The position numbers were made by a program, and so were the translations under genes. This document shows, piece after piece, positions 12,380 to 13,507 of a stretch of DNA of 64,000 bases. Under the pieces are notes generated by a model. That model was not told the origin of the DNA and searched no databases. It saw only the letters and a program-made list of their open reading frames with translations. Origin of the DNA: Escherichia coli (GTDB lineage Bacteria > Pseudomonadota > Gammaproteobacteria > Enterobacterales > Enterobacteriaceae). Where the stretch lies: assembly GCF_003334785.1 (NCBI RefSeq), contig NZ_QOWV01000004.1; one strand, given 5' to 3'. Within the stretch, counting starts at the first letter, position 1. Each line of letters begins with the position of its first letter.

Positions 12380-13507
12380 ATGGAATCGCTCTCAGAAGGA
12401 ACCACAGCAGGCTACCAGCAAATCCACGACGGTATTATTCATCTGGTCGATAGCGCCCGGACGGAAACGGTACGTAGCGTTAACGCGTTAATGACCGCGA
12501 CGTACCAGGAAATTGGCCGACGAATTGTCGAATTTGAACAAGGTGGCGAGGCCAGGGCTGCGTATGGTGCGCAGCTAATCAAGCGACTATCAAAGGATTT
12601 ATGTCTAAGGTATAAGCGTGGGTTCTCTGCAAAAAACTTACGCCAAATGAGGCTTTTTTACCTCTTTTTTCAACATGTTGAAATTCGCCAGACAATGTCT
12701 GGCGAATTAACACCATTGGGAATTCCGCAGACACCGTCTGCAGAATTCCCATCGGCAAAGATTTGGCAGACGCTGTCTGCCAAATCTTTCCCCTTGCCCA
12801 GGTCCACCTACGTCCGTTTACTTTCCGTTAAAAACGCTGACGCCCGCAGCTTTTATGAAAAAGAGACGCTCCGCTGTGGCTGGTCTGTTCGCCAGCTAGA
12901 GCGGCAAATTGCGACCCAGTTTTATGAGCGGACACTACTGTCACATGACAAATCAGCCATGCTGCAACAACACGCTCCTGCCGAGACGCATATTCTTCCG
13001 CAACAGGCGATACGCGATCCCTTTGTGCTCGAATTTCTGGAATTGAAAGATGAATATTCAGAATCCGATTTTGAGGAGGCGCTGATCAACCACCTGATGG
13101 ATTTCATGCTGGAACTTGGGGATGATTTTGCCTTTGTTGGTCGGCAGCGAAGGTTACGCATTGATGACAACTGGTTTCGTGTCGATCTGCTGTTTTTCCA
13201 CCGCCGTTTACGCTGCCTGCTAATCGTCGATCTAAAAGTGGGCAAATTCAGCTATAGCGATGCCGGACAGATGAATATGTATCTCAACTACGCCAAAGAG
13301 CACTGGACGCTACCGGATGAAAATCCGCCCATCGGTCTGGTTCTCTGTGCAGAGAAAGGAGCCGGAGAAGCGCATTATGCTCTGGCAGGTTTGCCTAACA
13401 CCGTTCTGGCAAGCGAATATAAGATGCAACTACCTGATGAGAAACGACTCGCAGATGAACTCGTTCGAACACAGGCGGTGCTAGAGGAAGGCTATAGACG
13501 CCGTTAA
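12380..13507 (+). CDS. yhcG: DUF1016 (YhcG-family) protein with C-terminal PD-(D/E)xK nuclease-like domain, 375 aa
   Basis: ORF 12380..13507; C-terminal region has ...FRVD(269)LLFF...LLIVD(284)LK(286)VGK... consistent with PD-(D/E)xK motifs II/III. Confidence 0.8.
   Translation: MESLSEGTTAGYQQIHDGIIHLVDSARTETVRSVNALMTATYQEIGRRIVEFEQGGEARAAYGAQLIKRLSKDLCLRYKRGFSAKNLRQMRLFYLFFQHVEIRQTMSGELTPLGIPQTPSAEFPSAKIWQTLSAKSFPLPRSTYVRLLSVKNADARSFYEKETLRCGWSVRQLERQIATQFYERTLLSHDKSAMLQQHAPAETHILPQQAIRDPFVLEFLELKDEYSESDFEEALINHLMDFMLELGDDFAFVGRQRRLRIDDNWFRVDLLFFHRRLRCLLIVDLKVGKFSYSDAGQMNMYLNYAKEHWTLPDENPPIGLVLCAEKGAGEAHYALAGLPNTVLASEYKMQLPDEKRLADELVRTQAVLEEGYRRR
12680..12796 (+). repeat. Three tandem in-frame 39-bp units inside yhcG, each with a 27-33 bp palindrome (12682..12708, 12719..12749, 12757..12789)
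   Basis: Exact 39-bp periodicity; units encode EIRQTMSGELTPL / GIPQTPSAEFPSA / KIWQTLSAKSFPL; inverted arms verified base by base. Confidence 0.75.

Follow-up and report, generated by a model that had tools for sequence, protein, structure and literature searches.

The described elements closest to the palindromes of yhcG are the REP/BIME elements, which are short (20–40 bp) hairpin palindromes that are sometimes clustered, often lie just past stop codons, vary between strains, and are tied to a particular gene with copies on its own flanks. REPs are extragenic, reach tens to hundreds of copies, have an imperfect G/C-rich stem with a GTAG/CGTC tag, and go with an HUH tyrosine transposase, whereas the yhcG palindrome is part of a coding sequence, in which its codon position and frame are fixed, with about five copies in the locus. 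Rickettsia palindromic elements (RPEs) are likewise palindromic DNA in frame inside genes, the extra peptide being tolerated in a surface or loop region. RPEs are mobile elements of 100–150 bp found across many unrelated genes of one genus, and the yhcG element falls outside this definition, as its unit measures 25–39 bp and sits in one gene family at one position, inherited across many phyla. Integron attC sites (57–141 bp, with extrahelical bases, at cassette ends, and recombined by IntI) also keep their structure while their sequence varies, being imperfect palindromes with covarying arms and conserved inner and outer bases whose functional form is folded single-stranded DNA, not duplex; in contrast, no integrase, cassette array, or recombination was noticed in the annotated yhcG-homologue loci that we read.

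PARCELs share with yhcG tandem in-frame coding repeats with DNA dyad symmetry; they are longer repeats from which surface proteins of Mollicutes and certain other microbes are in large part built, and they spread horizontally between unrelated genes, unlike the single conserved hairpin at a fixed site of an enzyme family in yhcG (PMC2996958). The parS site inside parB/spo0J offers a palindromic site within the coding sequence of a gene whose product may recognize that site; it is a conserved duplex read by a dimer, with non-contacted positions free to be asymmetric, whereas the variable positions of the yhcG palindrome covary. Finally, quasipalindromes are established template-switch hotspots, at which one arm is copied from the other to give perfect repeats and apparent compensatory changes, yet the known cases are mutational hotspots in single genes and not a family site shared across phyla. 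We found no description of palindromes in yhcG/DUF1016 genes in the searchable literature.

Here, we analyzed the palindromes of Escherichia coli yhcG in a stretch of 64,000 nucleotides (64 kb; hereafter the window) and in homologues of the gene. A preliminary description had reported three tandem in-frame 39-bp units with palindromes of 27–33 bp inside yhcG, and the sequence bears this out at 12676–12792, with a spacing of 39 + 39 bp and in the yhcG reading frame. The core that it gave as shared by the units, GCAGAC/GTCTGC, holds in part and is corrected here to CAGAC-N3-GTCTG, unit 1 having CCAGAC/GTCTGG. Two more copies, absent from that description, lie outside yhcG at 13522–13548 and 6383–6409. 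The features are as follows:

12380–13507, plus strand: yhcG coding sequence, 375 aa (open reading frame list; RefSeq annotation of identical E. coli DNA; Pfam; PADLOC).
12676–12714, plus strand: unit 1, 39 bp; perfect palindrome at 12682–12708, AATTCGCCAGAC-AAT-GTCTGGCGAATT; encodes (V)EIRQTMSGELTP.
12715–12753, plus strand: unit 2, 39 bp; palindrome at 12719–12749 with one mismatch, extending to 12717–12751 with one C·A mismatch; encodes LGIPQTPSAEFPS.
12754–12792, plus strand: unit 3, 39 bp; perfect palindrome at 12757–12789 (15+3+15), AAAGATTTGGCAGAC-GCT-GTCTGCCAAATCTTT; encodes AKIWQTLSAKSFP.
13522–13548, no strand assigned: extragenic copy, AATTCTGCAGAC-AGT-GTCTGCAGAATC, in the convergent yhcG/nanQ intergenic region, starting 15 nt past the yhcG stop.
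6383–6409, no strand assigned: extragenic copy, AATTCGCCAGAC-TGT-GTCTGGCGAATC, starting 15 nt past the gltD stop codon.

The peptides of units 1, 2, and 3 are EIRQTMSGELTPL, GIPQTPSAEFPSA, and KIWQTLSAKSFPL, respectively; the palindrome of unit 3 extends to 12754–12792 with one mismatch, and this unit lies immediately 5′ of a conserved LPxSxY helix. The array is far above chance: a 131-nt segment folded as RNA at −67.6 kcal/mol versus −28.4 ± 3.5 in shuffles (z = −11.4), and CAGACNNNGTCTG occurs five times in the window versus 0.03 expected. As single-stranded DNA (ssDNA), single units gave z scores of −7.1 to −8.9 on either strand, with folds of −14.3 kcal/mol (z −8.1) for unit 1, −13.8 (plus strand) and −16.4 (minus strand) for unit 2, and −15.7 for unit 3. 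Tandem Repeats Finder did not call the array of three units, because these are only 70–78% alike.

The host gene belongs to the YhcG/DUF1016 family, with DUF1016_N (Pfam PF17761, E = 1.3e-36) at residues 19–184 and the PD-(D/E)xK nuclease domain YhcG_C (PF06250, E = 1.6e-56) at residues 208–360. The preliminary description had placed the units between the N-terminal region and the nuclease domain; they instead lie inside DUF1016_N, between two helices. Residues 100–134 have a pLDDT below 50 in the predicted structure, and the 8–13 encoded residues are predicted to be a disordered passenger loop. In compact homologues, the palindrome peptide is the only link between the two helices. The family counts about 21,000 clusters (50% identity) at E ≤ 0.001, and its gene neighborhoods include Type I R-M, BREX, Shedu, and CRISPR systems; it matches the PADLOC family PDC-S02 (E = 2.8e-131), which is listed as a candidate defence family only. 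A sequence search of the PDB returned no solved relative, and NCBIfam covers neither YhcG nor the 101-aa open reading frame (ORF) of the Ec387 allele. An earlier profile analysis found the nuclease domain of YhcG to be related to YraN-type and archaeal Holliday-junction resolvases, which act on four-way junctions; resemblance of this kind is common to many PD-(D/E)xK domains. Separately, an HU-family gene lies directly upstream of the yhcG homologue in seven loci, and this association is lineage-specific, as all seven are from Burkholderiaceae.

Conservation was scored in 74 intact YhcG/DUF1016 homologues (37–66% identity, many phyla), over the 65 codons 5′ of the conserved LxW(S/T)xY motif (W anchor). 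A strong palindrome was present in this stretch in 65 of the 74 and, at a lenient threshold, at least one unit was found in every one of them. Palindrome density was 5.41 per kb in the 65-codon stretch versus 0.109 in the rest of the gene and 0.131 in the flanks, where about half of the count comes from one CRISPR array. What looked like a REP-like family in the flanks of one homologue (L069; 40 palindromes) was likewise an ordinary CRISPR array. When synonymous codons were shuffled with the protein unchanged, 1.4 ± 1.1 palindromes were left versus 78 observed. Picking units by the 8-nt core AGACNNNGTCT alone yielded 95 in the 74 genes versus 0.94 expected, every one centered on codon position 1 and 94 of the 95 in the linker. 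Among eight homologues from distant subfamilies (29–35% identity), five have unrelated palindromes at the same place and in the same frame, while palindromes are weak or lacking in the other three (L093, L094, and L097), as well as in L009. Subfamilies of unrelated sequence repeatedly show an A/T-rich base and a G/C-rich top, and arm length ranges from 9 to 18 bp between genes. Because position and frame are fixed across phyla in the family, the palindrome was inherited with the gene and not inserted, and the proposal in the preliminary description of REP-like elements tolerated in frame is not supported. As for a role as a frameshift hotspot, this found no support outside E. coli, since frameshifts occur in only 2 of 11 non-intact homologues, neither at the palindrome; the remaining non-intact homologues are interrupted by in-frame stops, run off contig ends, or did not pass the anchor search.

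Base pairing itself is what is conserved. In a gap-free alignment of 117 units, 92.1% of stem cells are paired versus 73.7% in shuffles (0 of 500 shuffles), with 218 double-sided changes versus 58, and slid controls gave 21–44% pairing. Among the 95 core-defined units, positions 6–9 from the center are Watson-Crick paired at 97/92/86/73% versus 70/36/33/37% in shuffles; these positions were left out of the core-based choice of units, so the covariation there is free of selection bias. At position 1, pairing is no higher than base composition predicts, as for a 3-nt loop, and in distant lineages pairing is 99% at position 12 but drops close to the level of shuffles at positions 13 and 14, i.e., the stem stops sharply at 12 bp. 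The variable triplet differs between tandem units of one gene, each being self-complementary, and two E. coli alleles differ in unit 1 by three fully compensated pairs. The constraint is thus intrastrand base pairing of nucleic acid and not a single recognized sequence, with covariation beyond controls as in conserved base-paired elements generally. Across stem positions 2–12 (114 units, about 1250 cells), the non-Watson-Crick cells comprise 12 G·T, 24 A·C, and 77 others. Selection on RNA pairing would make G·U tolerated and clearly commoner than A·C; no such excess is seen, which argues for a constraint at the level of DNA over one on mRNA.

The peptide follows the DNA, with IxQTxSGK, ISETLSRK, ISESLIRK, ILSTVSRE, and ILQSAIEE all present and with residue pairs (S-K, V-Q, L-E, R-E, and F-K) that fit first-base complementarity. 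Rare codons are forced by the palindrome in GC-rich hosts, where GC3 is 0.47 inside it and 0.76 elsewhere, ATT makes up 46 of 52 Ile codons inside versus 97 of 447 elsewhere, and TCT 59 of 107 Ser codons versus 42 of 743. The preliminary description had taken the dyad symmetry for a nucleic-acid feature and had named, as a finding that would speak against this, orthologues that keep the peptide without the symmetry; the opposite was found, orthologues keeping the symmetry, synonymous sites included, while the peptide changes.

Outside the gene, the copy at 13522–13548 folds as ssDNA at −10.8 kcal/mol (z −5.6), and the reading frame of one E. coli protein variant (P0021) continues past the yhcG stop into it, as RILQTLSGES. 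The copy at 6383–6409 (−12.1 kcal/mol as ssDNA) forms the left edge of a gltF-yhcABDEF segment that is missing from some E. coli strains, and strain 277, in which gltD directly adjoins yhcG, has no palindrome copy there. Both E. coli and unrelated lineages have same-core copies outside genes, one of them 18 nt past the stop codon in a Bacteroidetes genome; beyond E. coli, copies outside the gene are present in L053, L060, and L062 (three in tandem). A BLAST search of 5,426 complete E. coli genomes with a 47-nt query centered on the downstream copy (13522–13548) found a median of three and a maximum of six places per genome (four in K-12 MG1655), numbers for which the five copies of the yhcG locus could account. 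In viral contigs, most matches lie inside YhcG genes or gene fragments, and fully paired copies outside YhcG ORFs number 11, versus 1 and 5 for two composition-matched control palindromes; because this excess is small, a dispersed mobile family is not established.

Rfam 15 returned no match up to E = 1 on either strand of 11500–14500, which, with the low number of BLAST places, also answers the concern raised in the preliminary description that the motif might be an abundant, already catalogued intergenic repeat. Intrinsic (Rho-independent) terminators were rejected, as there is no T tract and a scan of 12200–13700 flagged none of four hairpins on either strand; in the 6383 copy, the stem is followed by AAATTACTGACG, without a T run. 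A CRISPR array was rejected as well, given units 70–78% alike, only 6–12 bp between palindromes, and placement of all units inside one ORF. Set against the hallmarks of REPs, 3 of the 5 window copies and nearly all homologue copies are in frame in coding sequence and not extragenic, copy number is low, and the units start with (G)AATT/ATT and end with AAT(C) in place of a GTAG/CGTC tag, the associated gene being a PD-(D/E)xK nuclease and not an HUH transposase (RAYT).

The three units of E. coli yhcG are a strain-variable tandem amplification of one ancient element of YhcG-family genes, a palindrome built in frame into the loop-coding part of DUF1016_N, whose stem of 11–12 bp is A/T-rich at its outer ends and G/C-rich further in and is closed by a loop of 3 nt. 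Because pairing is strictly Watson-Crick, with no tolerance of G·U, the relevant form is suggested to be DNA (an ssDNA hairpin or a cruciform) rather than mRNA, although a palindrome of 25–33 bp with a G/C-rich center does not easily extrude as a cruciform. The reading that we consider most likely, and that sequence comparison leads us to rate at about an even chance, is that the palindrome serves as a structured DNA site that works in cis and is tied to the product of its own gene, the YhcG nuclease; template-switch correction from arm to arm probably helps to keep its arms identical. Such a site may be a binding site for YhcG on its own gene, or may control how much is made of a candidate defence nuclease that is potentially toxic, and the copies just past stop codons would be secondary derivatives of the intragenic unit. 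A more specific version, which we offer tentatively and hold to be doubtful, is that YhcG and its internal palindrome form a self-contained protein-plus-site module, in which the nuclease would specifically bind or cut the hairpin or cruciform of its own gene and of nearby copies. A sensor, decoy, or switch would in that case be built into the gene itself, e.g., YhcG might be held on its self hairpin, or its synthesis gated by it, until hairpin-rich ssDNA of a phage or plasmid competes, and new copies and rearrangements could arise when the site is now and then processed. If true, this would be a previously unrecognized class of structure-specific cis element inside a defence gene.

The main rival, possible and in our view somewhat unlikely, is a neutral, self-maintaining palindrome with no nucleic-acid function, in which arm-to-arm template-switch correction outpaces point mutation. 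The arms would then drift together and seem to covary, as template switching copies arm onto arm, and deletion would be selected against because the protein needs the length of the loop. Strict Watson-Crick symmetry, with no G·U bias on either strand, is equally the product of such correction, and the disordered linker peptide (the sole link of two helices in compact homologues), the variable arm length, and the freely varying unit number in E. coli all fit it. On the other hand, all intact genes keep at least one unit at the lenient threshold, distant lineages show an abrupt end of the stem at 12 bp, and subfamilies unrelated in sequence share the A/T-rich base and G/C-rich top; same-core copies also exist outside genes, including just past stop codons in E. 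coli and the Bacteroidetes genome, where loop length cannot constrain them.

An mRNA hairpin, one of the options in the preliminary description, would slow or block translation or decay between the N-terminal part and the nuclease domain, or act as an autoregulatory operator bound by the protein, and thereby limit a toxic nuclease. In its favor are the high stability of the RNA fold, the constant placement of the element on the coding strand (a matter of construction), the 3′ untranslated positions of the extragenic copies, where hairpins stabilize mRNA, and the plausibility of tight control for a candidate defence nuclease. We nevertheless judge it distinctly unlikely, as pairing is strictly Watson-Crick with G·U rarer than A·C, whereas selection on RNA pairing would leave the reverse, no Rfam family matches, and the hairpins, lacking T tracts, include no intrinsic terminator.

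Repeated insertion of a mobile REP-like or RPE-like element, in frame in yhcG genes and also in intergenic DNA close by, possibly mobilized by YhcG as RAYT mobilizes REPs, is very unlikely. It would account for the same-core copies outside the gene (6383 and 13522 in E. coli and those in L053, L060, and L062) and for the excess in viral contigs, and in the common Ec387-type allele of E. coli the gene is cut at ...GCCAAAT, four bases before the 3′ end of the unit 3 palindrome, where a small ORF annotated as a transposase adjoins. Against it, the single frame of all core-defined units and the single protein position of all except one indicate inheritance, copy number in E. coli is very low, and the viral matches lie mostly in YhcG genes or fragments, with little excess over controls. 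The preliminary description also offered a protein-binding site; one form of it, a double-stranded operator for a dimeric DNA-binding protein (the helical domain of YhcG or a host regulator), comparable to parS in parB, is to us barely credible, since positions 6–9 vary between genes and between tandem units yet stay complementary, which a dimer reading duplex DNA does not need, and since the core itself differs between subfamilies. A protein repeat with incidental DNA symmetry, for which the recurrence of the motif IxQTxS in many homologues might speak, has next to no chance, being refuted by the synonymous shuffling, the turnover of the peptide with pairing kept, and the enforced rare codons, and lying in a region predicted to be disordered.

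A conserved nucleic-acid structure inside the large and unexplained YhcG/DUF1016 family provides a concrete, testable lead to its biology. It is also a clear case in which the protein code gives way to DNA pairing, whether through selection or molecular drive, with amino-acid pairs and rare codons dictated across many phyla, and such regions can mislead protein-motif models, "QTxS" being in truth a motif of the DNA. In addition, the cloning, synthesis, and sequencing of these genes can be hindered by perfect palindromes as long as these.

Among E. coli strains, the number of units is 1, 2, or 3; unit 1 is kept in all alleles examined and is the sole unit of the O157-type allele, unit 2 is missing from the 78-bp-shorter alleles, and many strains have lost or truncated yhcG altogether. 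Given this tolerance of one to three units and the frequent loss or truncation of the gene, any function of the palindrome is dispensable in E. coli. The alleles differ in length by 78 bp in frame or by 80 bp with a frameshift, which are length variants of the kind scored in the same gene by LSPA-6 typing of E. coli O157:H7, a scheme based on yhcG amplicon length (PMC3514354, PMC5320567). The typing papers that we read use length only and mention neither palindromes nor homologues, and variation in unit number may explain the yhcG length differences among O157:H7 lineages that LSPA-6 scores.

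The palindromes lie within yhcG, a gene flanked by a fimbrial-like gene cluster on one side and nanQ/nanK/nanE on the other:

12380-13507, + strand, yhcG coding sequence (375 aa), 100% identity to RefSeq genes named "PDDEXK nuclease domain-containing protein"
12682-12708, + strand, palindrome of unit 1, perfect
12719-12749, + strand, palindrome of unit 2, one mismatch
12757-12789, + strand, palindrome of unit 3, perfect

The three 39-bp units are consecutive and all in frame, encoding the peptides EIRQTMSGELTPL, GIPQTPSAEFPSA, and KIWQTLSAKSFPL, and coordinates, frame, and fold energies agree that they are real. 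The preliminary description of these units stands with two small corrections: their shared core is CAGAC-N3-GTCTG instead of GCAGAC-N1-3-GTCTGC, and their place in the protein is a loop inside the Pfam domain DUF1016_N, modelled by AlphaFold (residues 100-134) with pLDDT <50 between helices 84-96 and 141-148. Folded as RNA, the repeat segment reached -67.6 kcal/mol (z = -11.4); as single-stranded DNA, each unit had an energy of -13.8 to -17.6 kcal/mol, whichever strand was folded, and a comparison of the palindrome region with Rfam gave no match. A 59-aa ORF on the - strand (window 12579-12758) mirrors the repeat peptides (ILQTVSAEF, LIRQTLSGEF) because the palindromes dictate it mechanically, and it does not indicate a gene. 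Separately, a stationary-phase transcript, G0-10703, is reported to be divergent from yhcG and to overlap its 5′ region by 128 bp (PMC7967276); it belongs to the stretch upstream of yhcG (window about 12200-12380) and is unrelated to the palindromes.

Across the YhcG/DUF1016 family, the palindrome is ancient and intrinsic, forms a stem-loop, and is held by constraint on pairing, and this E. coli allele has three copies of it. Plasmid homologues from Burkholderia, Paraburkholderia, Segatella, and Phocaeicola (37-62% identity) carry a near-perfect palindrome at the same protein position in differing sequences. Scanning one genome per species yielded 80 loci. Their identities were 42-66%, except for the E. 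coli representative (93%), and they came from Proteobacteria, Acidobacteria, Bacteroidota, Ignavibacteria, Planctomycetes, Verrucomicrobia, Cyanobacteria, Nitrospirae, Myxococcota, and others, together with a Methanoperedens archaeon. A strong palindrome (arms ≥10, loop ≤5, mismatches ≤1) was present in the linker, i.e., the 65 codons before the conserved LxW(S/T)xY motif, in 65 of 74 intact genes, at a density of 5.41/kb vs 0.109/kb for the remainder of the gene and 0.131/kb for the flanks, where about half of the count came from one CRISPR array (L069 8800-11014, in a candidate-division FCPU426 genome; 61-bp period, 2.7 kb downstream of the yhcG homologue). Under a looser threshold, one to three units were present in each of the intact genes, and protein data alone (50%-identity cluster representatives) gave one to five peptide units per protein. 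Among eight distant homologues (29-35% identity), five carried an unrelated palindrome at the corresponding place and in the same frame (e.g., ATTGTCGTATCGCTGATACGAGAAT and ACGCAAATGTCCCACAGCCTGTGGGACATTTGCCT), and in the remaining three it was weak or absent.

The constraint falls on base pairing, and the peptide is not the target. When synonymous codons were shuffled within each gene, leaving the protein unchanged, 1.4 ± 1.1 linker palindromes remained vs 78 in the real genes. In a gap-free alignment of 117 units, 92.1% of cells were paired vs 73.7% in shuffles (0/500), double-sided changes numbered 218 vs 58, and pairing was 21-44% with partners slid. Since these units had been picked as palindromic, which is circular, the test was redone with units picked by the 8-nt core AGACNNNGTCT alone, of which the 74 genes held 95 vs 0.94 expected, all 95 centred on codon position 1 and 94 in the linker. 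At positions 6, 7, 8, and 9 from the centre, which lie outside the selection, 97, 92, 86, and 73% of core-picked units were Watson-Crick paired vs 70, 36, 33, and 37% in shuffles, with three or four pair types at each position. The orthologue alignment proposed in the preliminary description thus finds dyad symmetry kept, including at synonymous sites, while the peptide changes. Centring on codon position 1 pairs first positions with first and second with third, and the residue pairs observed (S-K, V-Q, L-E, R-E, F-K) are those set by complementarity; a changed core brings wholesale peptide change (IxQTxSGK, ISETLSRK, ISESLIRK, ILSTVSRE, ILQSAIEE). In the 36 genes whose GC3 is ≥0.70, palindrome codons had a GC3 of 0.47 vs 0.76 elsewhere, and the share of ATT among Ile codons was 46/52 in the palindrome vs 97/447 elsewhere, that of TCT among Ser codons 59/107 vs 42/743, and that of ACA among Thr codons 31/51 vs 54/539.

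The stem ends abruptly: 99% of units have A-T at position 12, whereas pairing at the next two positions (13 and 14) is near the shuffled expectation. At position 1 from the centre, pairing is not above what base composition predicts, and the centre thus acts as a 3-nt loop. Tandem units of one gene differ in a variable triplet, each remaining self-complementary, which a dimer-read duplex site fails to explain. Selection for RNA pairing is expected to leave many G·U and few A·C cells. The non-Watson-Crick cells at stem positions 2-12 comprised 12 G·T, 24 A·C, and 77 others; G·T is no commoner than A·C, and pairing is therefore strict and equal on both strands, which points to a DNA-level structure or a DNA-level process.

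Copies also occur outside yhcG. The sequence CAGACNNNGTCTG has five occurrences in the 64-kb window vs 0.03 expected, and two extragenic copies are full palindromes of the same type as the yhcG units:

13522-13548, extragenic palindrome starting 15 nt past the yhcG stop codon
6383-6409, extragenic palindrome starting 15 nt past the gltD stop codon

One E. coli YhcG protein variant has its stop read through into the downstream copy, giving "RILQTLSGES" again, and no T tract follows the hairpins near yhcG. The copy after gltD is absent from strains in which gltD directly adjoins yhcG; in the window, a gltF-yhcABDEF-like segment of fimbrial-type genes (6368-12250), missing from those other strains, lies between the two genes, and at its left edge the yhcG-type palindrome replaces a hairpin present after gltD elsewhere. 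A 47-nt query centred on the downstream copy matched a median of 3 and a maximum of 6 places per E. coli genome (4 in K-12 MG1655), which copies in the yhcG locus can account for; the palindrome thus does not form an abundant dispersed repeat in that species, and the abundant, catalogued intergenic family that the preliminary description had named as refuting its observation is not what was seen. Elsewhere, a Bacteroidetes genome (L060 6155-6193) has a long form of the palindrome (18-bp arms) whose CCGCAGAC core is shared with an internal unit and which lies 18 nt past the stop codon, paralleling the E. coli downstream copy, and a Thermoleophilia genome (L062 118-276) has three tandem yhcG-type palindromes, apparently non-coding, ~900 bp upstream of the yhcG homologue, representing either an array that stands alone or what is left of a lost paralogue.

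YhcG combines DUF1016_N with YhcG_C, a PD-(D/E)xK nuclease domain related to YraN-type and archaeal Holliday-junction resolvases (Kosinski et al. 2005, PMC1189080). In PADLOC the family is PDC-S02, a candidate single-gene defence system for which no mechanism was found described in the accessible parts of the literature naming it, apparently surveys and genome reports. Many PDC-S02 profiles have only 107-133 positions, matching YhcG residues ~10 to ~105 and ending where the palindrome-encoded segment (residues 101-139) starts, which suggests that annotated ORFs often stop at the hairpin, by real truncation or through assembly or annotation problems. The annotated homologue neighbourhoods examined were defence loci, and the eight distant homologues were flanked on both sides by Type I R-M genes or had BREX and Shedu genes, or CRISPR genes, as neighbours. 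Individual homologues in the family are flanked by hsdM and hsdS, by hsdS and hsdR, or by pglX and a Shedu gene, or are adjacent to cas10d (L007, L090, L095, L096, L091). In seven Burkholderiaceae loci (L004, at 1202-1480, L005, L018, L020, L023, L025, and L026), an HU-family DNA-binding gene, 47-100% identical between loci, stands 0-6 nt upstream of the yhcG homologue, and the two look like an operon; HU prefers bent and junction DNA.

The palindrome may act in cis as structured DNA, most plausibly tied to the gene's own junction-resolvase-like product or to control of that product, a reading to which we give an even chance. Its main rival, improbable yet deserving serious weight, is a neutral palindrome in a needed loop whose symmetry is kept by template-switch correction; this accounts for the strict Watson-Crick pairing but is weaker on the uniform stem length, on the A/T-base and G/C-top design common to unrelated subfamilies, and on the copies outside genes. 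An mRNA hairpin, which the preliminary description had also offered, is disfavoured by G·U being rarer than A·C, and we consider it distinctly unlikely. The fixed frame and position contradict repeated insertion of a mobile element, which is very improbable, and a plain operator, contradicted by the covariation, is marginally more so. A protein repeat is refuted by the synonymous shuffle (1.4 vs 78) and by peptide turnover with pairing kept, and its probability is negligible.

Among known systems, the REP-like identity raised in the preliminary description fails on location (not extragenic), copy number (not high), the missing GTAG or CGTC tag, and the missing RAYT gene; RPE fails on size and on the restriction to one family and one site, and the palindrome likewise does not qualify as a terminator, a CRISPR array, or a member of an Rfam family. 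In how it behaves, the palindrome most resembles DNA hairpin sites with conserved structure and variable sequence, such as attC, and palindromic coding elements carried in frame, such as RPE and PARCEL. The yhcG palindrome differs from all three in that it keeps to a single codon position in a single enzyme family and that covariation preserves it over many phyla. Neither the palindromic nature of the segment nor its conservation throughout the family was found in the searchable literature. Already known is the length variation of E. coli yhcG: the gene is one of six loci in the LSPA-6 length-typing assay for O157:H7 (PMC3514354, PMC5320567), and this variation, at whole-gene level, is therefore in use as a marker.

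Enterobacterial YhcG proteins span 349-391 residues, a range due to the repeat segment. In an O157-type allele, 78 bp are deleted in frame and a single unit is left; in another O157-like strain, the loss of 80 bp causes a frameshift. In a 92%-identical allele the first unit is AATTGTGCAGACACTGTCTGCACAATT, with three changes per arm relative to K-12, all compensated (R to V, E to Q). One common allele, of the Ec387 type (4/30 evenly spaced BLAST rows), is truncated at ...GCCAAAT, four bases before unit 3 reaches its 3′ end:

L167 (comparison locus) 1780-2400, Ec387 yhcG junction, corresponding to window about 12786-13565

Here the nuclease-coding part and the downstream palindrome, up to nanQ, are replaced by ~470 bp with a 101-aa ORF annotated as a transposase (WP_000639208.1; no match in NCBIfam), and this insert could be an element targeting the hairpin. 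Two further homologues align to YhcG in a single frame, yet their ORF extensions end early, after 43 codons in E. coli SCPM-O-B-8794 (L010) and after 168 in Methanoperedens (L039), which points to in-frame stop codons; in the archaeon this could be a pyrrolysine UAG codon. Among viral contigs, the pattern ATTNNNCAGACNNNGTCTGNNNAAT had 41 matches, 23 of them within intact YhcG-like ORFs and another 4 within gene fragments of that kind. Of two viral contigs lacking a YhcG match, one has a perfect yhcG-type palindrome inside another protein's ORF, reading MIGQTVSGQS (L104 7563-7587), and the other has two perfect intergenic palindromes, also yhcG-type, that overlap by two bases (L121 9938-9985).
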